DNA of 64,000 nucleotides from Desulfobacterales bacterium (GTDB lineage Bacteria > Desulfobacterota > Desulfobacteria > Desulfobacterales > G963662235). Under the pieces are notes generated by a model. The model was not told the origin of the DNA. It saw nothing but the letters and a program-made list of their open reading frames with translations, and did no database searches. This document shows positions 1-26,370 of the stretch, piece after piece (the stretch's first letter is position 1; each line of letters opens with the position of its first letter). Location: assembly GCA_963662235.1 (NCBI GenBank), contig OY759308.1:1004861-1068860 (forward strand). The letters are read 5' to 3'. A program made the translations under genes and the position numbers.

Positions 1-1
1 T

Positions 2-1072
2 GCAGGAATTATGATATCGGCATCACACAATCCTTATTGTGATAACGGTATCAAAATATTTAACGAAAAAGGGTTTAAGCTCAAAGATGAAGAAGAAAAA
101 GAGTTAGAAAATGCGATATTATCTTCTTATGTCTCAAAAGAAGAAAAGACCGGGAAAATATATCCTATTTACGATAGCGAAGAGCCGTACCTTAATTTTT
201 TAAAAACTTCTCTATCTCTGCCTTTTGATGCTTTTAGTAATTTAAAAATTGTTATAGATTGTGCAAATGGAAGTAATAGTGAAATTGCACCAAAACTTTT
301 TAACAGTCTAAAAGCTAACTTCATAACTATTAATAATTTGCCAGATGGTATTAATATAAATGAGGAGTGTGGTTCTGAACATACAGAAAAGTTAAAAAAG
401 AGAGTTTTGAGGGAAAAAGCGGATATAGGCTTTGCGTTTGATGGAGATGGAGACAGGATAGTCGTTATAGACGATAATGGCGAACAAATTAATGGGGACA
501 GCCTTATTGGAATATTTGCAAAGTTTGCAAAAAAAGAAGCGAAACTTAAAAATAATACGGTTGTTACAACTGTTATGAGTAATTTAGGATTAAAAAAAAG
601 TCTGCAAGATATGCAAATAAACTATCAAACATCTGATGTAGGGGATAGGAATGTAGTAAAAGAGATGCTCAAAACAGGGTCTAATATAGGAGGAGAAAAT
701 TCAGGGCATATAGTTTTTTTTGATAAACACACTACAGGAGACGGTCTATATGCTGCACTCAAGTTGCTTGAAATTATGGCAAAATACAAAAAGAAAGTAT
801 CTGAACTTTCAAAGATTGTAACAATATTGCCACAAACCTTATTAAATGTTGAGGTAGATAAAAAAGAGGATTTTACAAAAATTATTGAAATAAAAGAGAC
901 TATTGAAAGTGTAGAGAAAAAAATAGGCAAGTATGGTAGAGTTTTAGTTAGAAACTCAGGGACTCAAAATATCTGTAGAGTTATGGTGGAAGCTGAAACA
1001 AAAGAAGAGACAGAAAAATATTGTGACGAAATAGGCAAAATTATTAAGAAATACAGCGAGCTTTGCACATAA
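2..1072 (+). CDS. glmM: Phosphoglucosamine mutase (5' truncated by window edge)
   Basis: SASHNP active-site motif, FDGDGDR metal loop, VGDR and GGENSGH motifs; the last four codons (ELCT) and stop lie inside the MITE TIR. Confidence 0.95.
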   Translation, partial: AGIMISASHNPYCDNGIKIFNEKGFKLKDEEEKELENAILSSYVSKEEKTGKIYPIYDSEEPYLNFLKTSLSLPFDAFSNLKIVIDCANGSNSEIAPKLFNSLKANFITINNLPDGININEECGSEHTEKLKKRVLREKADIGFAFDGDGDRIVVIDDNGEQINGDSLIGIFAKFAKKEAKLKNNTVVTTVMSNLGLKKSLQDMQINYQTSDVGDRNVVKEMLKTGSNIGGENSGHIVFFDKHTTGDGLYAALKLLEIMAKYKKKVSELSKIVTILPQTLLNVEVDKKEDFTKIIEIKETIESVEKKIGKYGRVLVRNSGTQNICRVMVEAETKEETEKYCDEIGKIIKKYSELCT

Positions 1073-1242
1073 TATCCTTTTATGAAAAAATCGTAGTGTT
1101 TAATAAAATATCAACTTTTGATAATTTCATAAAAGTTTTAAAAAAACTGACGCTCTCTTTTATAATATTTTTGGGTTCGACGTATTAATATACTACTTCA
1201 CCACAAAAATATTACAAAATTTAAGCTATGCACAAAGCTCTC
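1056..1242. mobile_element. MITE, full-length copy, orientation A
   Basis: Ends GCGAGCTTTGCACATA / TATGCACAAAGCTCTC; 6-bp direct repeat AATACA at 1050-1055 and 1243-1248; internal hairpin shared with other copies. Confidence 0.9.
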
Positions 1243-1276
1243 AATACAGTTTGTAAAAAAATTAAAAACTAGAGGC

Positions 1277-1305
1277 TTGACACTCTAAAAATAAATATAT
1301 ATTGA
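1277..1305 (+). promoter_or_regulatory. Possible sigma70 promoter upstream of ferredoxin
   Basis: Perfect TTGACA at 1277-1282; the -10 candidate (TATATT or TATTGA) is imperfect in sequence or spacing. Confidence 0.3.
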
Positions 1306-1552
1306 GCAAAAAGATTGTTATTTTTAATAAATAATCAAGGCTTTCTAAGTATCTTTCTTATTTTTTAAAATAACTAATTTATTGTTTAATTGCCTTTGTA
1401 TAAAAAGAGTTGTTTTACGTTATTTGAAAAAAATTTAACTTTGTAAATTTTTTAGGTAATGTAGATATTTTATGTAAACAAAGGAATTTACTTATTTTAT
1501 TTTTAAGTAAAAATTTTTCAAACCAATTTACTAATTTAAAGGAGTACAACTT

Positions 1553-1741
1553 ATGTCTTTTAGTGTCACTGTAGATGCGGACAAATGTGAAGGATGTGAA
1601 GAATGTGTAGATATTTGTCCAGCAGATGTCTTTGAAATGGAAGATGATAAATCAACACCTGTAAACGAAGAAGAATGTATGGGTTGCGAAAGCTGTGTGG
1701 AAGTTTGTGAACCTGGCGCAATCGTAGTAGAAGAAGTTTAA
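1553..1741 (+). CDS. 2x[4Fe-4S] ferredoxin
   Basis: Two CxxCxxCxxxCP motifs in a 62-aa acidic protein; strong RBS AAGGAG. Confidence 0.95.
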   Translation: MSFSVTVDADKCEGCEECVDICPADVFEMEDDKSTPVNEEECMGCESCVEVCEPGAIVVEEV

Positions 1742-1746
1742 TTTTT

Positions 1747-1795
1747 AAAAAAAATCCCTTAAGAATTTTTAATTTATTCTTAAGGGATTTTTTTT
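1747..1795. terminator. Rho-independent terminator, potentially bidirectional
   Basis: A8-TCCCTTAAGAAT / ATTCTTAAGGGA-T8 perfect stem immediately after the ferredoxin stop. Confidence 0.85.
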
Positions 1796-1797
1796 AT

Positions 1798-1916
1798 TGA
1801 GCTGTTGCACGTAGCTTAAATTTAGCGTTTGTTTAATGTGGTTTCATAAATTTTTTTATTGAGCTTACCTTAAAAATACTATTTTTTTAATAAAACACAT
1901 TATGTGCAAAGCTCTT
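1798..1916. mobile_element. MITE, internally deleted and degenerate copy, orientation B
   Basis: Ends TGAGCTGTTGCACGTAGC / TATGTGCAAAGCTCTT; subterminal sequences match other copies. Confidence 0.7.
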
Positions 1917-1924
1917 TTCTATAA

Positions 1925-2257
1925 ATGAAACAATACATAATAGACGAGATAAGAGATAAAGATTATAACAAAATTAAATCTTTTTGTGATAATAATTTAG
2001 AGCCTTCAAAGATTGAGGGAATATATCATATCGTATTATCTTCTCCTCTTTTAAACAAAACCCAAAAAAGCCATAAAGAGTGTCAGCCATTCTATTTTGC
2101 TATCCATCTTTTGCGAGATAAGTTGATTATAGAACTTCTTATCAGGACAAAAAAAAAATTAAAGTGCGATTGTATAGGGTATGCCAATAAAACACAGAGA
2201 AACTGGATTATTGACTATTTTGATGGTGTACTAAAACAACTTGGGATAGTAATTTGA
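1925..2257 (+). CDS. Hypothetical protein with Cys motifs (ECQP, CDC)
   Basis: 110-aa ORF with natural composition, co-oriented with neighbours. Confidence 0.75.
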   Translation: MKQYIIDEIRDKDYNKIKSFCDNNLEPSKIEGIYHIVLSSPLLNKTQKSHKECQPFYFAIHLLRDKLIIELLIRTKKKLKCDCIGYANKTQRNWIIDYFDGVLKQLGIVI

Positions 2258-2279
2258 GCTTTTTACCATATAATTTTTT

Positions 2280-3512
2280 ATGATTTACGACTTTTCACTA
2301 CTTTTTATTTTATTATTTTTTTCAGCTTTTTTTTCATCATCAGAAACAGCTTTTTTTTCATTAAGCAAAGTTAAGATAGACTCTCTTAATGGGAAAGAGA
2401 CTTTGTTAAATAGACTTATCAAAAAGATGAAAGATGATTCTAATAAGCTATTAATCACTATTTTAATTGGTAATAATATTGCTAATATTGGTGCAGCAGC
2501 TCTTGCTACATCCATTGCTTTTAAAATATTTGAAAACAATATTGTCAGCATAGCAACGGGTGTTATGACTATTATAACACTTATATTTGGTGAAATTTTT
2601 CCAAAAGTTTTTGCTTCTAAAAATAATATGTTAGTTGCAAAAATTACAATAGTCCCCATCTATTGGTTTTCTATACTATTTTTCCCGCTCATATTCATTT
2701 TAAAACATCTATCAAAATACCTAAAAGCTATAAATCAGGCTCCTTCTTTTACAGAAAAAGAGCTTATTAGTATGATAGACCTTGGGGAGAAGGAAGGCGA
2801 AATAAAGCGAGAAGAAAAGAATATCATTAACAATATCTTAGAATTTGATGATACAAACGCTTACAGTATAATGACTCCAAGAACAGATATGTACGTTATA
2901 GATATTAAGAAAGGGTTAAATTTAAATGCAATTTCTCGAACAGGTTATAGTAGATTTCCTATAATCAATGAGAGTATAGATAACGTCATAGGTATTGTAC
3001 ATATTAAAGATATTTTTAAAGAGATGCTAACTATAGAAGATAAAAAAAATATCGATTTGAAAAATATAATGCGTGCTCCAATATTTATACCTGAAAGTAA
3101 AAAGTTAGATTCTTTGTTAACTCACTTTAGAAAAAGTGAAAACCATATGGTACTTCTTGTTGATGAGCATGGAGGAATTTCAGGCTTAGTAACTCTTGAA
3201 GATTTACTTGAAGAGTTAGTAGGGGAAATATCTGACGAAACAGATAAGACAGAGCCTTATATAGTTAAGGTTAATGATAATGAGTGGATAGTTCCAGGCA
3301 AAACAGAAATTGATGAGGTAAATGAAAAAACGGGACTAAAAATAAAGCCAGCTTCTGAATATGATACTTTTTCTGGATATATACTAAATAAAACGGGTAG
3401 AATACCTGCTTTAAATGAAAAGATTAAAATAAAAGATAACTTTATTGTAACTATTAGAAAGAGAAAAAAAAATCGGCTTGATACTATTTTATTAACCAAA
3501 ACAGGTGATTGA
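2280..3512 (+). CDS. CNNM/HlyC/CorC family transporter (DUF21 + CBS + CorC domains)
   Basis: FFSSSETA, GNNIANI, FGEIFPK, IMTPRTDM, SRFPI and VDEHGG..TLEDLLEELVGEI motifs. Confidence 0.92.
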   Translation: MIYDFSLLFILLFFSAFFSSSETAFFSLSKVKIDSLNGKETLLNRLIKKMKDDSNKLLITILIGNNIANIGAAALATSIAFKIFENNIVSIATGVMTIITLIFGEIFPKVFASKNNMLVAKITIVPIYWFSILFFPLIFILKHLSKYLKAINQAPSFTEKELISMIDLGEKEGEIKREEKNIINNILEFDDTNAYSIMTPRTDMYVIDIKKGLNLNAISRTGYSRFPIINESIDNVIGIVHIKDIFKEMLTIEDKKNIDLKNIMRAPIFIPESKKLDSLLTHFRKSENHMVLLVDEHGGISGLVTLEDLLEELVGEISDETDKTEPYIVKVNDNEWIVPGKTEIDEVNEKTGLKIKPASEYDTFSGYILNKTGRIPALNEKIKIKDNFIVTIRKRKKNRLDTILLTKTGD

Positions 3513-3533
3513 TAGAAGTTTTTTTTTAAAACT

Positions 3534-3728
3534 TTATTCTTTTTTACCTCTTTTCCTACCAATAAGAAAATAGATCAAAGCTCCTATAAAAGGGATTGAT
3601 GCAATAGCAAACCAAATTCCTTTTTCAATCGTGCTTTTAAAATCTTTGAGAATAATATCAATTAATGCCCATATCGTTATCACAAAAAAAGGGAAAGCGA
3701 CTGCTAACAATATCAATAGATTTAACAT
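3534..3728 (-). CDS. Small membrane protein, PLDc N-terminal-like
   Basis: WALIDI...K.IW.....PFIGALIYFLIGR pattern. Confidence 0.75.
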   Translation of the reverse strand: MLNLLILLAVAFPFFVITIWALIDIILKDFKSTIEKGIWFAIASIPFIGALIYFLIGRKRGKKE

Positions 3729-3808
3729 TTTAAATACCTACCTACAATAAAGGGAATTTATATTTTTTTTACCTCTATTTTTTCTTGGAAGAGGGAGTAG
3801 ACAAAAAA

Positions 3809-3825
3809 ATATGTGTAAAGGTCTA
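3809..3825. repeat. Solitary degenerate MITE terminal repeat overlapping the stop codon of the transglycosylase gene
   Basis: ATATGTGTAAAGGTCTA versus consensus TATGTGCAAAGGTCTC. Confidence 0.5.
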
Positions 3826-4683
3826 AAAAAATTTCAGTAAATTTGAGATACTAATAACAGCATTTGCATAATATATACTGTGGTTATATGTCCTAATAAT
3901 CTTAACAGTTTTACTTACTGTCATATCTTTTTTGAAACCATGATATTTAAGATAGTTGGCGATACTATAAATAGCATCAGCTTCTTCAAAAAGATTAACT
4001 TTTGAATTGTTATTCCCATCGACACCAAGTTTTAAGACATTACTTGGCATAAATTGAGCTATACCGATAGCTCCTGCATAAGAGCTTTTTATTTCGTTAG
4101 GATTTAACTTCTCTTTTTGTATATATTGTAAAAAAGCTTTTAGTTCTTTATATGCCCACGCAGATTTTTTATCTGCTATAGCATTAAATCTTTTTTTAGA
4201 TATTTTGTTATTTTTACTAATCTCTTGCCATATCAATAATCTATTTTTTTTGTCTGAAGGCATAAGAGTAGCCATAGTAGAAAGAATATTGATAGCCAAA
4301 TCTCTTCCTAAAAAAGCTCCTAATCTGGTTTCAACGAGCATTATAGCTGCTATAATAGTTTTATCTACTCCATACTGTTTTTCTGCCTCATCAAAGCTTT
4401 TTTGATGTTTTTTCATATATGCAAGAGTCTTTAGAGCAAACTCTTTAGAGCTGAACCTACAATAATTTAATTTACTTTCATCGTGCGAAAAATAGCTTGA
4501 AATTCTATTAGATAAAAAAACTGTGTCGTTATTATTAAAAACACTACTTATGAACTCTTTTTTGAAACCGTCTTCTATTAGTCTCTTTTCAAGATTACTA
4601 AAACGCATATCGCCTGCAAGTATAAGGTTTGGAAATATTAAAACACAAATAGCGATGAACAGTAAATTCCTAACAAAACTCAT
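3823..4683 (-). CDS. Lytic murein transglycosylase, MltB/SLT_2 family
   Basis: Signal peptide, VETRLG catalytic motif, SSYAGAIGIAQFMPS, DGNNN, SIANYL, YNHS. Confidence 0.92.
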   Translation of the reverse strand: MSFVRNLLFIAICVLIFPNLILAGDMRFSNLEKRLIEDGFKKEFISSVFNNNDTVFLSNRISSYFSHDESKLNYCRFSSKEFALKTLAYMKKHQKSFDEAEKQYGVDKTIIAAIMLVETRLGAFLGRDLAINILSTMATLMPSDKKNRLLIWQEISKNNKISKKRFNAIADKKSAWAYKELKAFLQYIQKEKLNPNEIKSSYAGAIGIAQFMPSNVLKLGVDGNNNSKVNLFEEADAIYSIANYLKYHGFKKDMTVSKTVKIIRTYNHSIYYANAVISISNLLKFF

Positions 4684-5455
4684 TTTTTATTTTTTCTCTT
4701 TTTTTAAAAGTCGTAATAGATTTAAAACCTATTTTTTTTAAGTTTTTTAAAGCTATATCAAAAAACCTTCCTACCTGTTTTGGGCTGTGAGCATCAGAGC
4801 CAACAACAATATCTATCCCTTTTTCTTTAGCTTTTTTTAATAGATAATCGGATGGATAACCTTCATAAAAAGGTTTAGCATAACCACTTGTATTATATTC
4901 CAAACAAAGATTTTTATTTTTTATTTTATCTAAGATTTTCTCAAACTCTTTTTTTACGCTATCTATCTTGCTTACATTCTTTTTAATAATGTCAAGATGG
5001 CATACAAAATCGAAATAGTCTTCATTTAACATATTGTTTAATTCATCCATATAAAGCTTTAAAACCTCCATATGGTCAATGTTTGGGTTATCTTTTTTAA
5101 AAGAACTTATAACGATATTGATATCGCCTGCAAAATGAACGGAAGAGCCTACTGCATCAAAGGGATATTTATTTACTACACTTTTTATAATCTCTATTTT
5201 TTTAGGGTTATAGTCAATCTCAACACCAGTTTTAATTGTTATTTCTTTTTGGAATTTTTTTTTAAGAGAGGCTACTTCGCTTATATAATCAGGCAATTCA
5301 TTTAATCCCATTGAAAGATTGATGCCTTTACGTAAAGTAATATGGTCTAAGAAACATATCTCTTTTAGACCTTTTTTAATAGCCTCTATAACATACTCTT
5401 CCATCTCTCCTGTCGCATGATTACAACGCTTTGTATGTATGTGATAATCTATCAT
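4670..5455 (-). CDS. PHP-family histidinol-phosphatase (HisJ/HisK-like)
   Basis: DYHIHT, GSVH-like, HLD, NTSG and GSDAH motifs; start reassigned to ATG at 5455. Confidence 0.88.
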   Translation of the reverse strand: MIDYHIHTKRCNHATGEMEEYVIEAIKKGLKEICFLDHITLRKGINLSMGLNELPDYISEVASLKKKFQKEITIKTGVEIDYNPKKIEIIKSVVNKYPFDAVGSSVHFAGDINIVISSFKKDNPNIDHMEVLKLYMDELNNMLNEDYFDFVCHLDIIKKNVSKIDSVKKEFEKILDKIKNKNLCLEYNTSGYAKPFYEGYPSDYLLKKAKEKGIDIVVGSDAHSPKQVGRFFDIALKNLKKIGFKSITTFKKREKIKNEFC

Positions 5456-5469
5456 AAAAGTACTATTTC

Positions 5470-5666
5470 GAGACCTTTGCACATAATGTTTTTTATGAAA
5501 AAAATAGTGGTTTTTTTGTAAATTATCAACTTTTGGCAATTTTACAAAAACAGCTAAAACCCTTATGAAGACTTACGCTCTCTTTCACTTTTGTTTTGGG
5601 TTCGACGTATAAAAATACTACTTCACCACAAAACAAAAGCAAAATAGAGCTATGTGCAAAGGTCTC
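5470..5666. mobile_element. MITE, full-length 197-bp copy, orientation A
   Basis: Perfect 16-bp TIR GAGACCTTTGCACATA / TATGTGCAAAGGTCTC; 6-bp TSD TATTTC at 5464-5469 and 5667-5672. Confidence 0.95.
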
Positions 5667-7924
5667 TATTTCCTGTAAAGACACTCTTTATTTGGACACT
5701 TTATAAAAGTTCCATCTTTTTTAGTTGTTTTTTCAACAAGATATTTTGAGCCACAATCGGGGCACTTTTCGTTTATTGGTTTATCCCAACTTGCAAACTT
5801 GCACTTTGGATAGTTACTACAACCATAAAATACTCTACCCCTTTTGCTCTTCCTCATTACTACATAACCTTTACAAGAAGTTTCAGGGCACTTAATATTC
5901 GTTTTTTCTTTTGTATTATTGTCAGCACTTACTCCAATATTACTCGTGTTTTTACAATCAGGATAACCGCTACAAGCCAAAAATTTTCCAAACCTACCGT
6001 GTTTAATCACCATCGGTTTTTTACATTTTTCGCATAACAAATCTACTTTTTCATTTAAGTCGGACTTTACAAGTGTGATTTTACCTTTTTCATCTCTTTC
6101 GTAATTACTTGTATAGTTGCATTCAGGATATTTACTACAAGCAATAAAAAAACCATTTTTACCAATCTTAATTTTAAGAGGAGCAGAACACTTGGGGCAT
6201 TTTAAATCGATATCAAGACCGACACCTTTCATACTCAGCATTCCATTTTGTGCATTTTCCAAATCCCCTTTAAATTTTTTATAAAACTCTTCTAAAACAG
6301 TTACATAATTTAAACCTTCCGTTTCTACCTTGTCTAATGAATCTTCCATCTTAGCAGTAAAATTGATATTAAAAATAGTATCAAAGCTTTCGGTTAAAAG
6401 TTTATTTACAACCATTCCAAGTTCCGATGGTTTAAAATAGCCCTTTATTCTTTCCACATACTCTTTATTTGTTATGGTAGACAAAATAGTGGCATAAGTA
6501 CTTGGTCTTCCCACTTCGTTTTCTTCTAACTCTTTTACAAGAGTAGCTTCTGAAAATCTTGGAGGCGGTTTTGTAAAATGTTGTTTAGGTACGATTTTTT
6601 CTTTGTTTATATCTTCGCCTTTTTTAAAATTAGGGAGCATAACTTCATTTTCATTGCTCGTTAAACTTCTATAAACTTTCAAAAAACCATCAAATTTAAC
6701 GTTAGAGCCTGTAAGTGTAAAAGCGTAGTCTCCATTTTTTATAGTGATACTATTTTGATTAATTAAAGCATCAACCATTTGAGAAGCAACAAATCTACTC
6801 CATATGAGAGAATAAAGCTTAAATTGATCATTTGTAAGAAATTTTTTCATTTTTTCAGGAGTTCTATAAACAGAAGTAGGGCGGATAGCTTCGTGGGCAT
6901 CTTGAATTTTGCCTTTACTTTTAAAAACTCTTTTTTTTAAAGGCAGATAATCTTTTCCGTAACTATCTTGTATAAAATTATAAGCCTCTTCAGAAGCTAC
7001 TTCAGACACTCTTTTAGAGTCTGTACGCATATATGTAATAAGCCCTTCATACTCTTGTTTATCGAGTTTTACTCCTTCATAGAGGGTTTGAGCTACCATC
7101 ATTGTTTTTTTTGCAGTAAACTTAAATTCTCTAATTGCATCTTGTTGCATAGTACTTGTGATAAAAGGAGGGTAGGGGGTTCTTTTTAATGTTTTTTTAT
7201 TAATTGCATCTACAACATAAGTACCTTTATCAAGCTCTTTGATAATAGCTTTAGACTCTTTTTCATTTTGTATCTCTATTTTTTTATCATTTTTCTTTGT
7301 AAGTTTTGCAATCAACTCTTCTTCGTTTTTTTTAAAAAGCAAAGAGATGCTCCAATACTCTTTAGGGTCAAACTTTTCTATCTCTTTTTCTCTTTCGCAT
7401 ATTATACGAAGAGCAACTGACTGTACTCTACCTGCACTAAGACCGCCTTTGACTTTTCTCCAAAGTAGAGGTGAAACTTTATATCCTACAAGCCTATCAA
7501 GTATTCTTCTTGCTTGTTGTGCATTATATTTATTTACATCTATAGTAAGAGGATTGTTAATAGCTTCTAAGATTTTTAATTTTGTTAACTCATAAAAAAG
7601 TATTCTATAAAAGTTTTTACCCTTTTTTTTCATTACTTCGGCTGTATGAAAAGCTATAGCTTCTCCTTCTCTATCGGGGTCAGTTGCAAGGTATATATTA
7701 TCTATATCTTTTGCTGCATCTTTTAATTGTTTTATAACTTTTTCTTTGCCTTGAATAGTTACATACGTAGTCTTAAATTTTTCTTCTGGTTCAATCCCAA
7801 GTTCTTTTTTAGGTAAATCTTTTATATGACCTATTGTGGACATAACTTTAAAATCTTTACCAAGATACTTTTCTATTGTTCTGGTTTTTGCAGGTGATTC
7901 TACAATTATAAGATTTTTTGCCAT
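5666..7924 (-). CDS. topA: DNA topoisomerase I
   Basis: VESPAK, DPDREGE, SAGRVQS, ITYMRTDS, AHEAIRP motifs and C-terminal zinc ribbons. Confidence 0.98.
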   Translation of the reverse strand: MAKNLIIVESPAKTRTIEKYLGKDFKVMSTIGHIKDLPKKELGIEPEEKFKTTYVTIQGKEKVIKQLKDAAKDIDNIYLATDPDREGEAIAFHTAEVMKKKGKNFYRILFYELTKLKILEAINNPLTIDVNKYNAQQARRILDRLVGYKVSPLLWRKVKGGLSAGRVQSVALRIICEREKEIEKFDPKEYWSISLLFKKNEEELIAKLTKKNDKKIEIQNEKESKAIIKELDKGTYVVDAINKKTLKRTPYPPFITSTMQQDAIREFKFTAKKTMMVAQTLYEGVKLDKQEYEGLITYMRTDSKRVSEVASEEAYNFIQDSYGKDYLPLKKRVFKSKGKIQDAHEAIRPTSVYRTPEKMKKFLTNDQFKLYSLIWSRFVASQMVDALINQNSITIKNGDYAFTLTGSNVKFDGFLKVYRSLTSNENEVMLPNFKKGEDINKEKIVPKQHFTKPPPRFSEATLVKELEENEVGRPSTYATILSTITNKEYVERIKGYFKPSELGMVVNKLLTESFDTIFNINFTAKMEDSLDKVETEGLNYVTVLEEFYKKFKGDLENAQNGMLSMKGVGLDIDLKCPKCSAPLKIKIGKNGFFIACSKYPECNYTSNYERDEKGKITLVKSDLNEKVDLLCEKCKKPMVIKHGRFGKFLACSGYPDCKNTSNIGVSADNNTKEKTNIKCPETSCKGYVVMRKSKRGRVFYGCSNYPKCKFASWDKPINEKCPDCGSKYLVEKTTKKDGTFIKCPNKECLYRK

Positions 7925-7964
7925 AATGCTCCTTACTTAAATTTAAGTCTAATCAAAGTTTTAG

Positions 7965-9074
7965 TTAAATTTTTGCAAACATTTTACCACTACTTTGTGA
8001 AACCAAACCTTTAAGTTCTAATTTAGTTAAAATTCCAGAAAGAGTAGCAATGTTTATATTTAATTTTTCACTGATTTTATCTATATGTTCATCGTAATAA
8101 CTCAAACTATTAAAAACTTTAAGCTCATCTTTTTCTAATTTTTCTGCAATACCTAATAAGGATTTTTTTTCATCATCTTCATTTTTTTGTTCAACATCTT
8201 GTTCTCTTAACAAAAATCTAACTTCATCAATAATGTCGTTAGCGTTTTCAACAAGTTTTGCTCCTTGTTTTAAAAGATGATGAGTTCCAGCACTTTTAAA
8301 AGAGTTTATATTACCTGGAACTGCGAAAACTTCTCTTCCTTGTTCTAATGCTAATCTTGCAGTTATTAAAGAGCCACTTTTTTTACTCGCCTCTACAACC
8401 AAAGTTCCAAGAGAGATACCCGATATAATTCTATTTCTCATAGGAAAATTTTCAGGTTTAGGCTCTTTAAAAGGCGAAAATTCAGAGATAACTGCACCGT
8501 TTTCTTGTATCTCGTAAAAAAGCTTTTTATTTTCAAGAGGATATATTTTTTCAAATCCACTTCCTAAAACAGCAATTGTCTTGCCACCTGAAGAGATAGC
8601 TCCGATATGAGCTGCAGTATCAATTCCTCTTGCCATACCGCTTACTACCTGAATATCTAAATTAGCAATATCCCCACTAATTCTTTTCGCCACTATTAAA
8701 CCATAATTTGTGGCAACTCTAGAGCCTACAATTGCAATATTGTCTGCCTTATTATTTAGTTTACCTAAAACGTAAAGAAAAGGAGGTGGGTCAGAAATTT
8801 TTAGAAGAAGATGTGGATACTCTTTATCCGACATTGTTATTATTTGATAATTTTTGTCTAATGCGGTCTCGTAATCTTTTTTTACACTGTCAGGAGTTTT
8901 ATGTTTTAAAATGTTTTTTGCTTTCTCTTCGCTAATCCCCTGTACTTTTATTAAATTTTTATAATCTGCTTCAAAAACAGCTTTAGGTGTTTTAAAAACA
9001 GCTATAAGATTTTTTATTGAATAATTTCCTATACCAGCAACACTTTTAAGTTTAAGCCATATCAATTTGTCCAT
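7965..9074 (-). CDS. dprA: DNA-processing protein DprA
   Basis: IVGSR, VSGMARGIDT, FPMRNRIISG, SGSLITA motifs; typical dprA-topA synteny. Confidence 0.96.
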   Translation of the reverse strand: MDKLIWLKLKSVAGIGNYSIKNLIAVFKTPKAVFEADYKNLIKVQGISEEKAKNILKHKTPDSVKKDYETALDKNYQIITMSDKEYPHLLLKISDPPPFLYVLGKLNNKADNIAIVGSRVATNYGLIVAKRISGDIANLDIQVVSGMARGIDTAAHIGAISSGGKTIAVLGSGFEKIYPLENKKLFYEIQENGAVISEFSPFKEPKPENFPMRNRIISGISLGTLVVEASKKSGSLITARLALEQGREVFAVPGNINSFKSAGTHHLLKQGAKLVENANDIIDEVRFLLREQDVEQKNEDDEKKSLLGIAEKLEKDELKVFNSLSYYDEHIDKISEKLNINIATLSGILTKLELKGLVSQSSGKMFAKI

Positions 9075-9102
9075 AAATAGAAATCCCGAAAATTTTTAAT
9101 GG

Positions 9103-9126
9103 AATAGAGCTATGTACAAAGGTCTC
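9103..9126. repeat. Solitary MITE end
   Basis: AATAGAGCTATGTACAAAGGTCTC matches 5643-5666 at 23 of 24 positions. Confidence 0.8.
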
Positions 9127-9164
9127 ATAAAAATATTTGATAAATTGCTATGTATAAAAAAAAA

Positions 9165-9788
9165 TTAAAATTTTACATTAATACCAATAGATAACGTATG
9201 AATCTCTTCTGTAAATTCAATTTCGTATTCTTTATTATAAACTGCCATATTTGCCCATTTAATATAGTGACCTTTATAAGCAAGGTCGAGTTCTACATAG
9301 TCATTGATTAGAAAATAAAAACCTAAACCTAAATTTAAAGCGACACCTTCCAAATCTTCTTTGTTATCTTTGAATTTATCAGCACTATTTGAATATGTGT
9401 AATAACCAGCACCAGCCATTACGAAAGGTTTAATTCTTTTATAATTTTTATCTTTTAAATGTATAACGTATATATAATTTAGGTTTATTCCTGTAATCTC
9501 TTCTTCTGTGTCTGTTCCTGTATTAAAAACAGATGCATCATCATATTTAAGTTTATATCTTGATTGTGAGCACTCAATTCTATGTCTTGGATTTAAAAGA
9601 ACACCTAATCTAATATTAGTGCCAAGTAAATCAGATTCTTTTTCGTACTTTTCGTCATCTAAGCTAACTCTATCTTTATTGATACCTATATGACCTGCAC
9701 CACCCAAATAGACATAATTTTTAGCATAAGCAGGGCTCAACATAAAAAAAGATAAAAGAGTAGTTAAAAAAAAACTTTTATATGTCAT
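9165..9788 (-). CDS. Outer-membrane beta-barrel protein (8-stranded OmpA/porin-like)
   Basis: Signal peptide, amphipathic strands, PFVMAGAG, C-terminal Phe. Confidence 0.8.
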   Translation of the reverse strand: MTYKSFFLTTLLSFFMLSPAYAKNYVYLGGAGHIGINKDRVSLDDEKYEKESDLLGTNIRLGVLLNPRHRIECSQSRYKLKYDDASVFNTGTDTEEEITGINLNYIYVIHLKDKNYKRIKPFVMAGAGYYTYSNSADKFKDNKEDLEGVALNLGLGFYFLINDYVELDLAYKGHYIKWANMAVYNKEYEIEFTEEIHTLSIGINVKF

Positions 9789-10575: not shown

Positions 10576-10576
10576 A

Positions 10577-11602: not shown

Positions 11603-11607
11603 TTATT

Positions 11608-13158: not shown

Positions 13159-13208
13159 TTTTTATCTCCTACAAAACTTTTTAGCTTTTTTACCATTTTA
13201 AGTAGTTT

Positions 13209-13285
13209 GAGACCTTTGCACATAAGTTAATATTTTATAAAAAAACCACTATTTTTTCATAAAAAACATTATGCGCAAAGGTCTT
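13209..13285. mobile_element. MITE, 77-bp minimal copy lacking the internal hairpin
   Basis: GAGACCTTTGCACATAA / TTATGCGCAAAGGTCTT; 6-bp TSD TAGTTT at 13203-13208 and 13286-13291. Confidence 0.9.
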
Positions 13286-13334
13286 TAGTTTGTAATTTTT
13301 TATAACAGAAACTTCTGTTCTATTTTTTAAAAAA

Positions 13335-13646: not shown

Positions 13647-13686
13647 TATTTTTTTTTCTCCTTATAAGTATTTTTATTTAATTAAT

Positions 13687-13961
13687 GAGACCTTTGTACA
13701 TAGCTTTATTTTGCTTTTGTTTTGTGGTTCACCCAGTGAAATAAGATTTGAGTTTTACAACACAAATCTTATTTTTAAATTTGAAAAATTTAAAAATATT
13801 TCACGGGGTAAAGTAGTATTTTTATACGTCGAACCCAAAACAAAAGTAAAAGAAAGCGTTAGTTCCTATTGGTTTTTATAAGTTTGTAAAATTATCAAAA
13901 GTTAATATTTTACTAAAAACCACTATTTTTTCACAAAAATATTATTATGTGCAAAGGTCTC
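13687..13961. mobile_element. MITE, orientation B, carrying a nested insertion
   Basis: GAGACCTTTGTACATAG / TTATGTGCAAAGGTCTC; no matching TSD (ATTAAT versus TATCTA). Confidence 0.92.
13729..13809. repeat. 81-bp nested palindromic element
   Basis: Absent from sister copies; ends ACCCAGTGAAATA / TATTTCACGGGGT enclose two internal hairpins. Confidence 0.8.
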
Positions 13962-15432: not shown

Positions 15433-15444
15433 TCTTATCCTTTT

Positions 15445-16257: not shown

Positions 16258-16315
16258 ATATTATTCTCTATACTATTTTCTAAATTTAAAATATGCGTTT
16301 TAAAACAATACAATC

Positions 16316-16396
16316 AAGACTTTTGCAAATAGTTCTATTTTATAAAGTTATCAAAAATTGGTATTTTACTGAAAATTACTATTTTTTAACTATTAT
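16316..16396. mobile_element. MITE, internally deleted copy lacking one TIR, in tandem with the next copy
   Basis: AAGACTTTTGCAAATAG start; its 3' part is nearly identical to 16525-16575. Confidence 0.7.
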
Positions 16397-16398
16397 TA

Positions 16399-16588
16399 AA
16401 GACCTTTGCACATAGCTCTATTTTGTAATATTTTTGTGGTGCAGTAGTATATTAATACGTCAAACCCAAAAATATTACAAAAGAGAGCGTAAGTCTTTAT
16501 AATGGTCTTCCAAGTTTTTTGTAAAATTATCAAAAATTGGTATTTTACTGAAAGTTACTATTTTTTAACTATTATGTGCAAAGGTCTT
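16399..16588. mobile_element. MITE, full-length copy, orientation B
   Basis: AAGACCTTTGCACATA / TATGTGCAAAGGTCTT; internal 16-bp perfect stem; abuts the ecfT stop codon. Confidence 0.92.
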
Positions 16589-17347
16589 TCATATAAAAAA
16601 AACAATAAACATAAAACAAATCAATATTAAAAAAAAGAACCAATCTTCAGATGTAAAAGGAAGTTTAGTTTTTGTTCTAACTTCTGAAAAGTTTCTTGAT
16701 TCTATAGCATCAGTTAAATCGCTTGCATCCTTAAACACAAGCCGTATAAAAGGGAAAATAAACTTTTTCATTCTATAAATTGGATTTTTTTTTAATTCAA
16801 TGTTTCTCGATTTTTGTGCTTCATCCAACTCTTTAAAAGATGTGAATAAAGCAGGTATAAATCTGAAAATCAAACTTAACATAAAAGATACACGCTCAGC
16901 AGGGAAAAAAGGTATAAATTTTAGATAGTAGTAGGTAGCAAATCTCACCTCTTTAGATTTGGTGGACATAATAAAAAGCAGTGAGAATGAAGTAATAATA
17001 AATAGTCGAAAGATAAACAAAAAACCGAGATAAGTAGCCTCTTTAGAAAAATATATAAATTTATACTGAAAAATATAAGGGGGAGATGTTCTAAAACTTC
17101 TTACAAAAAAAATTATAATTAAAAATATATAAAAAGATTTTATTTTTTTTAAGACACTAAAAAGAGGCAGAGAAGACTCAATTGTTAAAAAAAACAAGAA
17201 AAGAGTCAAAAAAACAAGCCCATAAAAACTCAATTTAAAACTTATAATGCTTATTATTAATAAAAATAAAAATTTAAACCTTACATCAAATCTATGTACA
17301 GCAGAGATGCCATGTATATAATTTATTTGTTCAAAACTTTTGCTCAT
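16589..17347 (-). CDS. ECF transporter transmembrane component T
   Basis: HRFDVRFK, FRFIP, AQKSR and AIESR conserved Arg motifs. Confidence 0.88.
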   Translation of the reverse strand: MSKSFEQINYIHGISAVHRFDVRFKFLFLLIISIISFKLSFYGLVFLTLFLFFLTIESSLPLFSVLKKIKSFYIFLIIIFFVRSFRTSPPYIFQYKFIYFSKEATYLGFLFIFRLFIITSFSLLFIMSTKSKEVRFATYYYLKFIPFFPAERVSFMLSLIFRFIPALFTSFKELDEAQKSRNIELKKNPIYRMKKFIFPFIRLVFKDASDLTDAIESRNFSEVRTKTKLPFTSEDWFFFLILICFMFIVFFI

Positions 17348-18056
17348 AAGGTTTTTTTACCCCAAAATTTTCAAGCATATTAAGAAAATCGTTTGGCTTT
17401 CCATATCCTGCTACATTGCCTTTAGACATAATTAAAATTTTATTAGCATACTTTATAATTTCGTCTAAATTATGAGTAATAACAATTATTGTGTGTCCTT
17501 TTTTGTGCAATTTTATAATCTCTTTCATAATCTTTTTTTTACTAAAAAAATCGAGACTCATAAAAGGTTCATCAAAAACAATTACTTTAGGTTTCATAAC
17601 TAAGATAGATGCTATACAAAGTTTTTTCTTCTCTCCACCAGAAAGGGAATAGGGGGGAGTATTTAATATCTCTATTAAGTCAAACTCTTCTATTATATCA
17701 ACAACCCTTTTGCGTATAACTTTTTCGTCTAAAGATAAATTTTCAAGCCCGAACGCTATATCGTCATAAATAGTTTCTCCGACTATTTGACTGTCAGTAT
17801 TTTGAAATACCATACCAACAAGCTCTCTTACTTTCCTTAAATTTTTTTTAACTTCAATATTACTTACAAAAACCTCTCCTTTATCAGGAATAACCAAACC
17901 GTTAAGAAGCTTTACAAGGGTGCTCTTTCCAGAACCATTTGCACCGCAAATAATAACAAAATCTTTCTCTTTAATAGTAAGTGAAATATCGTCTAATACA
18001 ATATTGTTTGAAGAAGATTTGTAAGTTACGTTTTTTATTTCTATAAAATTCATCAA
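17331..18056 (-). CDS. ECF transporter ATPase
   Basis: GANGSGKST, VFQN..SQIVG, LSGGEK, FDEP. Confidence 0.9.
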   Translation of the reverse strand: MMNFIEIKNVTYKSSSNNIVLDDISLTIKEKDFVIICGANGSGKSTLVKLLNGLVIPDKGEVFVSNIEVKKNLRKVRELVGMVFQNTDSQIVGETIYDDIAFGLENLSLDEKVIRKRVVDIIEEFDLIEILNTPPYSLSGGEKKKLCIASILVMKPKVIVFDEPFMSLDFFSKKKIMKEIIKLHKKGHTIIVITHNLDEIIKYANKILIMSKGNVAGYGKPNDFLNMLENFGVKKPYEQKF

Positions 18057-18170
18057 TTAGCCTTGTGGTTATGGGATAATCTTTGTCGTTATTTTAAATA
18101 ATTTATTCAAAAAAGATATAATTAAATCTTTGTTAAAAACTTATGAAAATAAAAAATAAGAAATTTAAAG

Positions 18171-19142
18171 TTATCTTGACATATTTTTTCTATAAAGTGT
18201 TGTGATAAGGAATGCTACTATAATCTGCCCACATAAACTTTCAACCATCGTTATAGTTTTACTTATTCCTACTGGGGTTATATCTCCAAAACCTACCGTC
18301 GTAAAAACTATTGTACTAAAATAAAGTAAGTTTAAGAGTGTTGTAAAGATTGGCATATGATTGCTATTGAATTTCAAAATTTGGTCATTGTATTTTACGC
18401 CAAACAAGCCGTACAGAAATGCAAAAAAGACAATTGTAATAAGCATTGTAGCTACTACATTTAGAGGCTTTTCTCCGTATCCTGTAGTATAATCTAATAG
18501 TTTTGAAATAAATCTTTTTAATGAAAAAAGAGGAAGTTGCTTTCTTGCCGCAACCATCTCTCTATGAAAAAAAGGACCTTCCTGTTTATTGTGCCCACTT
18601 TCGCGATAGCACAATTTAATATTTCGATAAATTTCTTCAGCTTCTCTATATTTTTTAACTGCTTGTGTTAAATCGCCTTGCTTTGCTAACTTGTCTCCAT
18701 CTTTTTCGTTAATTATAATATATTTTTTGTTCCATCTTGTATTTTCTAACTTGGTGCCTGTAAGGTTAGCTCCAAGCAAATCACAGTCTCTTAAATCAGC
18801 AGCTCTTAGATTAGCATTTTCAAGGTTTGTTTTAAATAGATTAGCAGAATTGAGATTTATTCCATATAGATGACCATCTGACAAATCGGCTTTTGTAAAA
18901 TCACTTTTTGAAAGGTTAGCATTTATAAGATAAACATTGTGAAGTTTTGCATATGGCAACTTAAAACCTTCAAGATTTTTTTCATCTCTTGCGAGTTGTT
19001 CAAGCTCTTTTTTTATATCTTGTTCGGTTCTGTCATCATAAGTGTGCCAAACACAATTATCTTGCCCTTCTTTTGTTTCATAAGGACAAGGAGTGCCATC
19101 ACTAAAGACATACTTGCATTTTTGTGTATTAGAATTTGTCAT
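18171..19142 (-). CDS. Pentapeptide-repeat protein fused to a 2TM potassium-channel pore domain
   Basis: A(N/D)Lxx repeats, TTGYGEKP, LYFS...TTVGFGD selectivity filter. Confidence 0.88.
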   Translation of the reverse strand: MTNSNTQKCKYVFSDGTPCPYETKEGQDNCVWHTYDDRTEQDIKKELEQLARDEKNLEGFKLPYAKLHNVYLINANLSKSDFTKADLSDGHLYGINLNSANLFKTNLENANLRAADLRDCDLLGANLTGTKLENTRWNKKYIIINEKDGDKLAKQGDLTQAVKKYREAEEIYRNIKLCYRESGHNKQEGPFFHREMVAARKQLPLFSLKRFISKLLDYTTGYGEKPLNVVATMLITIVFFAFLYGLFGVKYNDQILKFNSNHMPIFTTLLNLLYFSTIVFTTVGFGDITPVGISKTITMVESLCGQIIVAFLITTLYRKNMSR

Positions 19143-19167
19143 ATTTTAGCTTTCAATTTGTGTGTTT

Positions 19168-19243
19168 TAAAATTAGCAAAAGTTAATATTTTGCAAAAAA
19201 GCCACTATTTTTTTCATAAAAAAATATTATGTACAAAGGTCTC
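19168..19243. mobile_element. MITE, one-ended fragment
   Basis: AAAATTAGCAAAAGTTAATATTTT..CCACTATTTTTTTCAT..TATGTACAAAGGTCTC matches 13888-13961. Confidence 0.82.
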
Positions 19244-19347
19244 TATTGTGTTACGGTATAAAGGTCAACTATTTCATTTTTTTGGGATTTAATTCCTATG
19301 GGATAAGTTTTGGGCTATAAAGAAGACTCAAATTTTACAAGGCAAAT

Positions 19348-19442
19348 TATTTCGGAGCATCTTTAAAAGATTTAGGAAAAAATGGTTTGGGTTTAATAAG
19401 TTTGAAATTGATGCTATAAAAATCTTAAACAAACTATTTTAA
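19348..19442 (+). pseudogene. 3' fragment of an ORF6N-family gene with a 1-bp deletion
   Basis: Encodes FGASLKDLG(fs)WFGFNKFEIDAIKILNKLF*, homologous to the end of 20556-21422. Confidence 0.85.
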
Positions 19443-19558
19443 AATCGAACAAAACACTTTTAATCCACTTTAATTGTCAAAAAAACTAAATAAGACAACA
19501 ATTGACTATTTAGGTTTAAACTAATAATAAAAACAAATATTTATTTAGAAAGGTTTGA

Positions 19559-19774
19559 ATGTTTATGAAAGTAAAAACAATATCATCAAATCAGAACGAT
19601 ATTTCAAATTTATATAATAGTTTTATTTGTGAAAAAAATGAACTTGAATCCACTCTTGCCACAATAGAAATATTATCAGATAAAAATGCTGTTAGTGAAA
19701 TTCAAGAGGGATTAAATGAGATACAAGATGGCAAAACAAAAAAAATGTCTTTTGATGAGATTGAAAATTTATAA
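19559..19774 (+). CDS. Putative antitoxin partner of a RelE-like toxin
   Basis: ESTLATIEILSDK...EGLNEIQDGKTKKMSFDEI tail typical of RelB/Phd-type antitoxins; directly upstream of a relE-like gene. Confidence 0.72.
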   Translation: MFMKVKTISSNQNDISNLYNSFICEKNELESTLATIEILSDKNAVSEIQEGLNEIQDGKTKKMSFDEIENL

Positions 19775-19776
19775 GA

Positions 19777-20034
19777 ATGAGGTAAGCAGAGTTTTCAAAT
19801 AAATTTTTAAAAAATTTATCTAAAACAGATGAGAAATTAAAAGAAGAAATCAAAAAAAGAATAAGGCAAATCTTAATAAATCCCCATTCTGGAATCCCTC
19901 TCAAAAAACCCCTTAAGCCACTTTTTAAGTTAAGGTATTCAAATTATAGAATTATTTATTATTTTGATGATAAATTTGTTTATTTTGTTGCCTTCAACCA
20001 TAGAAAAAAAGTTTATAAAAATTTAAATTCATAA
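19777..20034 (+). pseudogene. RelE/ParE-family toxin with a nonsense codon at position 3 (not in ORF track)
   Basis: ATG AGG TAA, then open frame AEFSNKFLKNLSK..NPHSGIPLKKPLKPLFKLRYSNYRIIYY..FNHRKKVYKNLNS*. Confidence 0.88.
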
Positions 20035-22423: not shown

Positions 22424-22504
22424 TAAAAATTAAATCTTACCTAATTTTTTAATCACTTCTTAAAAATACCAATCTTTTTTAAAACTTAAAAATTTAATTA
22501 GAAT

Positions 22505-23388: not shown

Positions 23389-23483
23389 GGGAAAAAACAA
23401 ATCATACAGGAACTATAGAAAATTTTACATGCACGTAAAATTACAAATAATTTCATTTAAGGACGAAATAGTGGATTAAACAA

Positions 23484-24404: not shown

Positions 24405-24612
24405 TCTATTAAAATCTTTGGATAAAGTTTAAGTTATTAAAAAATTTAAAAAAGTAACCATTTTTATAAAAAAAACTCTAATACATAAACCATTCCAAAA
24501 CACGATGTCAAAGAGAAAATTTTTGTCAGGATAATTTTATTTGCTTTATTATATTGTTTTATTTATGTCACTTTACTTTTAGCTGTAACTCTGATGAGAG
24601 TTTTGCTTTTCT

Positions 24613-24685
24613 AAGACCTTTGCATATAATATTTTTACAAAAAACCACTATTTTTTTCATAAAAAACATTATGTGCAAAAGTCTC
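24613..24685. mobile_element. MITE, 73-bp minimal copy
   Basis: AAGACCTTTGCATATA / TATGTGCAAAAGTCTC; closely similar to 13209-13285. Confidence 0.85.
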
Positions 24686-24720
24686 GTATTTAAAATCTCT
24701 TAAAAACATTTTACATAGTT

Positions 24721-26187
24721 ATGAACATTAGTAATTTAGAACAAACAAAATTAGATAAAATAGAAAAAATTAAAGAAGCAGGTTTCAAGCTTTTCCCTAA
24801 CACCTTTGAAGTCAACTCAAATATACAAAAAATTAAAAGTGGAATAGAAGAAGACGAAAGTTTTTTTACTAAAGAAGATACCGTTTTAAAAATTGCTGGT
24901 AGGATTATGGCAGTTAATAAATTTGGTAAGGCATCTTTTATAAGAATTAGTGACAGAACGGGTAAACTTCAAGTCTATTTGTCTAAAAAAGATGTTGGAG
25001 AAGACAAATATAATCTTTTTAAATATATGGATATTGGAGATTTTATAGGTGTTAGCGGGTTTATGTTCCAAACTCGAACTAAAGAGTGGACACTTTTTGC
25101 AAAAGATATAGAGCTTGTCACAAAAAGTAAAAAATCTTTGCCAGAAAAATTTCATGGCTTAAAAAACACAGAAAAAAGATATAGAAAAAGATATTTAGAC
25201 CTTATTGTTAACGATAATGTTAAAGATATTTTTATTAAAAGAAGTAAAATTATTCAAAATATAAGAGATTTTTTAATCAAAAAAGAGTTTATAGAGCTTG
25301 AAACTCCTATGATGCATAAAGTTGCAGGTGGGGCAGAAGCAGAACCTTTTATTACACACCACAATGCTCTTGATATGGAGTTTTTTTTAAGAATTGCTCC
25401 AGAGTTATATTTGAAACGACTTGTAGTGGGTGGGTTTGAAAGAGTTTTTGAAATTAATAGAAATTTTAGGAATGAGGGCGTCTCTACAAAACATAACCCT
25501 GAGTTTACAATGGTTGAATTTTATATGGCTTATAAAAATTATGAGCATTTAATGAATTTAACAGAAGAACTTTTTAATGAAATAGCAATCAACGTTACAG
25601 GCGGAACTGAGATTGTTTATCAAGATAAGAAAATAGATTTTGGTAAAAAATGGAAACGAATTAAGCTTTTAGACTCTCTTGTGGAAATTGGGGGCGTTGA
25701 TCCAGTGCTTTTTGAAAGCAAAGAGAAGTTATACGATTTTGCCAAAAATATTAATATTGAAGTTTTTAAAAAGGACACTAAAGGCAAGCTTATCACTAAG
25801 CTTTTTGATGCTTTAGTAGAGCCTAATCTTATACAACCTACTTTTATTACACACTATCCTGTAGAGGTTTCTCCTCTTTCAAGAAAAAATGATATTGATG
25901 AAACGGTAACTGATAGATTTGAACTTTTTATTGATGGAAAAGAGATAGCCAATGGTTTTTCAGAGATAAATGACCCTGATGACCAAAAGGATAGATTTTT
26001 GGAGCAATTGAAACAGAAAGAGCAGGGCGATAAAGAAGCACATAGTATGGATGAAGATTATATTGAAGCTCTTAGTTATGGTATGCCCCCTACAGCAGGA
26101 GAAGGTATAGGTATAGATAGAGTTGCAATGCTTTTTACAGACTCTCCATCTATTAGAGAAGTTATTTTGTTTCCACTTATGAAGTAA
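24721..26187 (+). CDS. lysS: Lysine--tRNA ligase (class II)
   Basis: LPEKFHGL, LRIAPELYLKRL, FRNEG..HNPEFT, YGMPPTAGEGIGIDR. Confidence 0.98.
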   Translation: MNISNLEQTKLDKIEKIKEAGFKLFPNTFEVNSNIQKIKSGIEEDESFFTKEDTVLKIAGRIMAVNKFGKASFIRISDRTGKLQVYLSKKDVGEDKYNLFKYMDIGDFIGVSGFMFQTRTKEWTLFAKDIELVTKSKKSLPEKFHGLKNTEKRYRKRYLDLIVNDNVKDIFIKRSKIIQNIRDFLIKKEFIELETPMMHKVAGGAEAEPFITHHNALDMEFFLRIAPELYLKRLVVGGFERVFEINRNFRNEGVSTKHNPEFTMVEFYMAYKNYEHLMNLTEELFNEIAINVTGGTEIVYQDKKIDFGKKWKRIKLLDSLVEIGGVDPVLFESKEKLYDFAKNINIEVFKKDTKGKLITKLFDALVEPNLIQPTFITHYPVEVSPLSRKNDIDETVTDRFELFIDGKEIANGFSEINDPDDQKDRFLEQLKQKEQGDKEAHSMDEDYIEALSYGMPPTAGEGIGIDRVAMLFTDSPSIREVILFPLMK

Positions 26188-26188
26188 G

Positions 26189-26370
26189 AAGAACTTTGAA
26201 TAATTAGTTTTTAAGTTTTTTGGTATTAATAAATGTTTAACGTTTGTTAATTTATCTAAAAGAATAAAAAATCAAACCGCTTTCTTTTGTCCGTTTTTTG
26301 GGCTTGACGTATAAGAATACTACTGCACCACAAAAAACGAACAAAATAGAAGCGATTATTCAAAGTTCTT
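26189..26370. mobile_element. Sister MITE with variant TIR and the same internal hairpin
   Basis: Perfect 16-bp IR AAGAACTTTGAATAAT / ATTATTCAAAGTTCTT; core GGGCTTGACGTAT-N4-ATACTACTGCACCAC. Confidence 0.85.

Follow-up and report, generated by a model that had tools for sequence, protein, structure and literature searches.

The 64,000-nucleotide stretch of Desulfobacterales DNA analyzed here (hereafter the window; bases 1004861-1068860 within a single 2,133,799-bp contig, OY759308.1, 30.9% G+C) contains several copies of an abundant repeat, which we identified as a transposable element of the miniature inverted-repeat kind (MITE) with terminal inverted repeats (TIRs), a 6-bp target site duplication (TSD) and an internal fold-back whose stem differs between subfamilies by paired substitutions. 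The most conserved part of this MITE is the internal structured junction of the fold-back and not the transposase-binding ends, while the stem around the junction evolves by compensation. With moderate confidence, we interpret these repeats as an orphan IS5-type MITE superfamily that is restricted to its lineage and whose fold-back is kept in the lineages of elements that propagate. In this interpretation the elements would be non-autonomous, with no cognate transposase remaining in the genome, and the fold-back would be kept because a structure in cis (single-stranded DNA, cruciform or RNA) is needed for mobilization or, alternatively, by selection acting on master elements. Inserted copies would then decay almost neutrally, and any effects on host transcripts as stable mRNA hairpins would likely be by-products, as described for bcr1, Correia and ERIC elements.

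Identification of the repeat family

An earlier reading of the window from its letters alone (the original prediction) had described a family of related elements with TIRs. In order to count them, the 18-nt terminus GAGACCTTTGCACATAAT was searched with up to three mismatches. This search found 15 TIR halves in the window, against 0.12 expected and a number that none of 100 shuffles reached, and every coordinate of the original prediction matched or adjoined one of the hits. The core pattern GGGYTYGACGTAT-N4-ATACTACTKYACCAC matched five times against 0 expected, at 1173(+), 5598(+), 13805(-), 16436(-) and 26300(+), which accounted for all five copies thought to carry this core. Genome-wide, 675 TIR halves (345+330) and 187 cores (94+93) were found in 2.13 Mb. 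Pairing of TIR halves less than 400 nt apart yielded 208 elements, with size classes of about 70, about 110, 190-200 (the main peak, ~106 of the 208) and 270-290 nt. An exact 6-bp TSD was present in 93 of the 208 elements, whereas shuffled flank pairs gave 1.1 (maximum 6 in 1000 shuffles), and TSDs of other lengths or offsets were merely sub-windows of the same 6-mer. The target sites were A/T-rich with a weak A-W-W-W-W-T profile.

The TIRs are 16-18 bp long. TIR-paired copies make up 1.7% of the genome or more, covering at least 36.9 kb. The elements (70-290 nt) are non-coding, only nine of the 187 cores overlapping crude open reading frame (ORF) calls, mostly of ~90-100 aa. These results confirmed that the repeat family is real and abundant, and its TIRs, TSD of fixed length and small, non-coding, multicopy elements are those of a MITE, as had been proposed. 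The three exact TSDs that had been read in the window (AATACA, TATTTC and TAGTTT) were recovered at their elements; the other bounded copies lacked an exact TSD. Contigs from four DNA runs of one study, compared with positions 1-20000 of the window, ended at the repeats, and no joint among them bridged an empty insertion site.

The copies in the window, with the one ORF that ends inside an element, are as follows:

11..1072, +: ORF ending 17 nt into the left TIR of the 1056 element
1056..1242, +: complete 187-nt element, short-core form, stem AATATTTTT/AAAAATATT; 5' arm 1152-1172, core 1173-1204, 3' arm 1205-1225; TSD AATACA at 1050-1055 and 1243-1248
1799..1916, -: degenerate derivative without core, a TIR-like end on each side
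3808..3825, -: solo TIR-like 18-mer, weak, three mismatches
5470..5666, +: complete 197-nt element, main subfamily, stem TTTTGTTTT/AAAACAAAA; 5' arm 5577-5597, core 5598-5629, 3' arm 5630-5650; TSD TATTTC at 5464-5469 and 5667-5672
9100..9126, +: right-end fragment with a 3' arm remnant and TIR
13209..13285, +: short 77-nt form without core; TSD TAGTTT at 13203-13208 and 13286-13291
13687..13961, -: long 275-nt form with three-way-junction fold, core 13805-13836(-); the ~80-nt palindromic module P3 lies in the 3' strand of its core, at roughly 13724-13804
16316..16396, -: partial copy without hairpin, directly adjoining the 16399 element
16399..16588, -: complete 190-nt element, core 16436-16467(-), no exact TSD
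19168..19243, -: left-end fragment with left extension and TIR
24613..24685, +: short 73-nt form without core, no exact TSD
26189..26370, +: complete element of 182 nt, from another TIR subfamily (AAGAACTTTGAATAAT / ATTATTCAAAGTTCTT), with the same core as the other copies at 26300-26331; stem CCGTTTTTT/AAAAAACGA

The original prediction had treated all of these copies as one group. They are indeed related, but the 26189 copy belongs to another TIR subfamily and the 13687 copy is a long form carrying an insert.

Structure of the fold-back

A full element of the main family consists, in order, of an 18-nt left TIR, an 87-nt left extension, a 21-nt 5' arm, a 32-nt core, a 21-nt 3' arm and a 16-nt right TIR. 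Each full copy has a fold-back of ~75 nt, formed by a 21-bp A/T-rich stem, the 32-nt core junction and a 4-bp apical mini-hairpin. Within the core, GGG pairs with CC(A)C and T with A, and the mini-hairpin is GTAT-N4-ATAC. The stem variants quoted for the window copies were present and paired, and the apical 4-nt loop proved variable as claimed, most core columns being either invariant or conserved to at least 90%. The stem contains a C·T mismatch (columns 11/75) and the fold-back a bulged A57; each of the two was conserved in at least 90% of the 108 distinct hairpins aligned below. In the ~110-nt forms the arms continue the TIRs directly, which makes a single long imperfect palindrome of the entire element. 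In the 190-nt form, 105 nt separate the 5' arm from the left tip and 16 nt the 3' arm from the right tip.

Covariation of the stem

The genome-wide collection of cores contained 114 distinct short-form windows. A pairing filter removed 13 of these, and seven with a 1-nt register shift were restored, so that six windows remained excluded (four mis-typed long forms, one deletion variant and one truncated copy). The resulting alignment comprised 108 distinct 84-nt hairpins, all of the short form, the 32 long forms being left out. Paired cells amounted to 89.9%, compared with 82.4±0.3 in shuffles and 43-55% when the partner was slid by 1-3 columns. Both sides changed in 14 of 24 outer-helix pairs, and double-change cells numbered 207, against 68±6 in shuffles that take no account of relatedness (none of 500 reached the observed value) and 29-59 in slid registers. 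Columns 17-22 showed two to four Watson-Crick types each with columns 64-69. RNAalifold, run without a supplied structure, recovered the inner eight pairs of the long stem and the four pairs of the mini-hairpin, five of them covarying. These results indicated that the covariation of the stem is real and that the stem differs between subfamilies by paired substitutions, which bears out the compensatory changes first noticed in the window. An additional pair inside the core (Y32-K52, columns 32/52), proposed from linked variants, was dropped because only 30.6% of rows pair there.

Three chimeric copies (genome coordinates are marked C1; C1:991052, 1354741 and 311069) have 5' and 3' arms from different subfamilies and a broken stem. 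Their sequences suggest recombination between copies with a breakpoint in the core.

Conservation of the core and the long form

The core is common to at least five TIR subfamilies with different termini (GAGACCTTTGCACATA, GAGAGCTTTGCACAAAC, GAGACCTTTGAACAA, AAGAGCTTTGAATAATC and GAGNCTGT...ATAATGCC) and unrelated left extensions; the tips read GAGNSYTTTG across the superfamily. Identity between group consensuses was 0.89 for the core and 0.69 for the arms. Since copies had originally been found through the core, the count was repeated on 129 tip-defined elements of at least 150 nt: 115 contained the core within three mismatches, six contained it with 4-9 mismatches and eight had none. Conservation of the core is not merely a matter of ascertainment.

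In the long form, represented by 32 of the 187 copies, the 3' core strand is split by the palindromic module P3 of ~80 nt (TTYACCC-N-GTGAAATA...TATTTCAC-N-GGGTGAA), which was found in either orientation at the same site. When P3 is present, GGGTTC pairs with GAACCC and a three-way junction is predicted at -53 to -56 kcal/mol (z -8.5 to -9.5). P3-like units also occurred away from pattern-found cores, at 30 of 72 loci, some in divergent cores, some alone and some joined to other small palindromes. The junction sequence TACTT...ACCAC is common to short and long forms, and both forms exist in several subfamilies. The short core may be a deletion derivative of the long form, and the asymmetric internal loop noted in the original prediction would then probably be the scar of the three-way junction after loss of its third branch, P3.

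In three core variants (C1:73558, 1504202 and 1823475) the greater part of P3 is missing together with some of the mini-hairpin, and the ends are joined at a shared TATTTTTA; these variants are further deletion derivatives of the long form.

Maintenance of the hairpin at the element or at the host locus

The original prediction had suggested that the hairpin could serve as a dispersed signal for processing, termination or protein binding in the transcripts of operons. According to this explanation, read-through transcripts would contain the hairpin as a structured RNA module with a part in their processing, their stability or the binding of proteins, and selection would act on it locus by locus. 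It has a precedent in bcr1, which is transcribed and shows compensatory changes (Delihas 2011, PMC3184786), and it draws further support from the strand asymmetry and the modest depletion of rare variants described below, but we consider it unlikely on the basis of four sets of analyses.

The first concerned orientation. Between co-directional gene pairs, the written strand of the core was in mRNA sense in 66 cases and the opposite strand in 49, so that the better-folding strand (the reverse one) was not preferentially transcribed. The remaining cores lay between divergent genes (47), between convergent genes (16) or inside crude ORF calls (9). Copies in divergent gaps were over-represented (47/187, against a background of 184 of 1111 gaps), and there was no excess at 3' ends. 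Orientation relative to replication, with the direction taken from GC skew, was 87 against 100 (p 0.38). The second concerned termination, for which positions 900-17000 of the window were analyzed. None of the seven terminator-like sites there fell on a MITE hairpin, shuffles gave 6.1±2.8 such sites, and neither promoter-like nor terminator-like sites exceeded shuffles. No T-tract terminator was found there, and the hairpins do not resemble intrinsic terminators, in which a G+C-rich stem precedes a T tract.

The third analysis concerned private mutations in 103 elements anchored on the left extension and right TIR, a selection independent of the core. Singletons per nt were 0.31 in the core, 0.31 in the arms and 0.49 in the left extension, differences that were not significant (p 0.22 and 0.15). 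Variants present in at most two copies stood at 0.56, 0.55 and 0.95 per nt, respectively. Two earlier versions of this test were discarded: the first gave a stronger-looking result but had a bias, its copies having been selected through the core, and in the second the sample was contaminated by long-form copies. Finally, the 20 rare stem states were mostly disruptive, with ten non-wobble mismatches, five A·C, three G·T and only two compensated states, and three of the 187 copies were the inter-subfamily chimeras with broken stems. Taken together, the tests of orientation, terminators, private mutations and rare stem states suggested that the hairpin is maintained at the level of the element rather than at each locus; a signal in operon transcripts was thus not borne out. 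Compensation would have arisen along the multiplying lineages, with inserted copies decaying nearly neutrally under at most weak constraint.

Several observations weigh against selection confined to propagating elements. Rare variants were ~40% fewer per nt in the core (p 0.04) and in the arms (p 0.017) than in the left extension, which would fit some constraint after insertion, at most a weak one. Mismatches were also asymmetric: A·C, which is G·U on the reverse strand, occupied 160 cells and G·T 32, corresponding to 71 against 27 combinations of pair, state and haplotype but only to 19 against 14 pair/states. The reverse strand was also predicted to fold better in three of three window copies (-32.2 vs -26.3, -25.7 vs -16.4 and -34.0 vs -23.8 kcal/mol). 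These values hint that the strand complementary to the written one might be the folded single strand, as RNA or single-stranded DNA, and a strand-specific single-stranded form would fit an RNA role. The asymmetry could alternatively have arisen if a few master copies mutated with a strand bias, and it was unmatched by any orientation bias. In addition, as the shuffles ignore relatedness, the number of independent compensatory events, estimated from pair types, is roughly 15-20, far below the cell counts. Lastly, that the fold would be needed for mobilization is our inference, and the derivation of the short from the long core is read from the shared junction sequence only.

Other explanations for the paired arms

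A second explanation, to which we give a rather small probability, is that covariation arises as a by-product of mutation and not by selection on structure: intrastrand template switching or fold-back repair would homogenize the two arms of a palindrome, any change in one being copied to the other. Changes did occur in blocks, five of six adjacent pairs differing between the CTTTTG and TAATAT stems, and the whole element is a nest of palindromes. P3 was found in both orientations at the same site, as recombination between inverted repeats predicts, and orientation bias of any kind was absent in the transcription and replication tests. However, conversion should erase the C·T mismatch and the A bulge, which instead persist across subfamilies, and likewise the common A·C mismatches, which are retained by dozens of copies (at columns 16/70, by 45 rows). 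These persistent irregularities argue against plain arm-to-arm copying, and homogenization would leave unexplained why conservation is best in the asymmetric 32-nt core.

We also entertain, as a conjecture with a slender chance of being correct, that the 32-nt junction together with a stem of free sequence is a portable cis-module, read as a folded single strand by a non-cognate factor acting in trans. This factor may be a RAYT-like HUH enzyme of the genome or a host nucleic-acid-binding protein. The module would be one handle shared by the subfamilies, with P3 and the GTAG-headed hairpin described at the end of the Results as interchangeable parts. If this were true, several MITE subfamilies with different termini would share a single handle for mobilization or processing.

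Finally, it is very improbable that the arms are symmetric double-stranded binding sites for a lost transposase, covarying to match one protein while the hairpin never forms. This explanation would fit the ~110-nt forms that are a single long inverted repeat (copies at genome 323631 and 922870) and the covariation of TIR tips with subfamily. In the 190-200 nt class, however, which has been the most successful, the arms are complementary and diversifying despite their unequal distances from the tips (105 and 16 nt), which favors a local fold-back over symmetric binding sites at the ends. Stem types A, B and C are each found together with the left extension, and the pairing register is centered on the core and not on the tips.

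Search for a cognate transposase

The orphan status of the superfamily was supported by a whole-genome search for transposase domains. PF01609 (DDE_Tnp_1) gave only two matches, both in an unrelated insertion sequence (IS), and the genome had no match to PF05598 (DUF772), PF13586 (DDE_Tnp_1_2), PF13359 (DDE_Tnp_4), PF13612 (DDE_Tnp_1_3) or PF01610 (ISL3). This IS is 1351 bp long and encodes a 388-aa DDE_Tnp_1 transposase; it has its own TIR (CAGTAATGTCCGGTTAGG...) and 9-bp TSDs (GGTTCACCC; CAACAGATG), and its two copies are identical (C1:886901-888251 and C1:1681203-1682553). The first of them explained the only candidate for an autonomous element. This TIR-bounded segment of 1639 bp (genome 886853-888491) was a long-form MITE interrupted by the IS within its P3 part. 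No autonomous IS with the same TIR and a 6-bp TSD, for which the original prediction had proposed to look, was thus found in the genome.

The same Pfam search returned two rve and three Y1_Tnp matches. One Y1_Tnp-like gene (53.9 bits; C1:223812-224159, L132:1471-1818; best Y1 gene at genome 223842-224138) has been interrupted close to the 3' end by a copy from the GAGACCTTTGAACAA subfamily of MITEs. A further two Y1-like ORFs (180 and 209 aa, near 1967107 and 1246392) seem to be intact. A REPIN arrangement, suggested by a core adjoining the Y1 gene, was rejected, because this gene is interrupted by a MITE and not flanked by inverted copies. Two further sets of repeats were rejected as IS. Those of 1.2 kb (C1:1262026-1263218, 1425274-1426484, 1599068-1600267 and 1678582-1679806) are paralogous protein genes: a gene of ~570 aa is present there in four copies that have diverged (82-88% identity), and MITEs often flank them; the repeat at 107145/967334 corresponds to EF-Tu duplicates.

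Distribution

A covariance model of the hairpin had at least 150 matches in this genome, whereas 100 further genomes from the order yielded none. The relatives compared belong to the same order only, none being from the same family or genus. A DNA search of 40 of these relatives gave a single 24-nt match (E 7e-4), which was taken as chance. The core pattern had no exact match in species-representative genomes or metagenome contigs, sets from which records of the own genome may be left out, and the exact 18-mer TIR had five single matches in species-representative genomes, in unrelated organisms and at chance level. No described Rfam 15 family matched the 64-kb window at gathering score; the best sub-threshold match was a generic U/A-rich hairpin, Phe_leader, which scored 29.4 bits where 55 would be required for gathering. 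A literature search for the core and terminus strings found them in none of the papers searched.

Relation to known systems

The first 12 nt of the TIR (GAGACCTTTGCA) match without a difference the TIR given in PMC4596501 (Table 2) for ISNme1, of the IS5 family, and for BrickBuilt_4 and BrickBuilt_5, which supports in a general way the IS5-family likeness of the original prediction, there drawn to IS1106. This tip is therefore shared with BrickBuilt of Porphyromonas gingivalis and ISNme1 of Neisseria. The elements differ in that BrickBuilt TSDs are reported as irregular (PMC4596501) whereas those found here are regular and of 6 bp, and the interior of the MITE (left extension, stem and core) has no evident counterpart in BrickBuilt or ISNme1 as they appear in the pertinent part of that source. 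Moreover, no IS5-family transposase accompanies ends of this type in the genome.

In function, the resemblance that we claim is to bcr1 of the Bacillus cereus group, a MITE-like element of ~155 bp that is transcribed and keeps its fold by compensatory changes (Delihas 2011, PMC3184786). Both are interspersed, non-coding, mobile-looking repeats with short terminal direct repeats and a compensated fold, and the claim is limited to function. According to that paper, bcr1 has 5-bp direct repeats, a two-stem cruciform and documented transcription, and it belongs to an unrelated host lineage; the MITE, in contrast, combines a 6-bp TSD and TIR tips like those of IS5 with a single long stem that holds a conserved junction, and is known from its sequence alone.

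Correia/nemis elements of Neisseria and ERIC/IRU elements of enterobacteria resemble the MITE in being abundant palindromic MITEs of ~100-200 nt, located between genes in either orientation and forming long hairpins once they are transcribed. Effects of RNase III and RNase E are known for Correia and ERIC elements, and the TSD of Correia elements is TA. Both differ from the MITE described here in TIRs and TSD, and they are not known to have a conserved asymmetric junction common to subfamilies with different termini. For nemis elements the fold is noted in PMC3184786 (Fig. 1 legend).

A further likeness is to repetitive extragenic palindromes (REPs), REPINs and their RAYT (HUH Y1) enzymes, in that hairpin structure outweighs stem sequence, a short conserved motif stands beside a variable palindrome and the genome encodes three Y1_Tnp-like genes. 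REPINs are not known to have TIRs or a TSD. The MITE, unlike them, has TIRs and a 6-bp TSD and shows no replication-strand bias, and the best Y1 gene is interrupted by a MITE copy. It is thus a new family of an already known kind, the structured bacterial MITE with a hairpin kept by compensation, with the slightly unusual traits of an internal junction conserved above the termini, orphan status and exchangeable palindromic modules. The bacterium is phylogenetically isolated, and the family is a well-documented addition to the cases known; its ~190 paralogous copies in one genome are a natural data set for distinguishing element propagation from selection at host loci, and DNA from RNA hairpins.

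GTAG-headed palindromes and elements at gene ends

A separate, G+C-richer palindrome headed by GTAG (GTAGGGAACGGTTT(T/A)AAACCGTTCCCTAC) occurs in ~28 copies genome-wide, none of them in the window (examples at C1:295907, 296202 and 507958), and is frequently found joined to P3-like units as well as to a GGGGG...CCCCC hairpin. By its appearance it looks like a classical REP, and this palindrome rather than the MITE looks like the true REP of the genome. It may be a substrate of the Y1-like genes; no copy lies within 3 kb of them.

Copies of the MITE also shape the ends of genes, which is relevant for annotation, since elements supply stop codons and new C-termini and also interrupt genes, including the Y1 transposase-like gene. 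The left TIR of the 1056 element supplies the last five codons and the stop of ORF 11..1072 (+), and the right end of the 5470-5666 element falls within the stop codon of ORF 5666..7924 (-). Genome-wide, 18 of 1676 crude gene calls terminate within the terminal 20 nt of an element.

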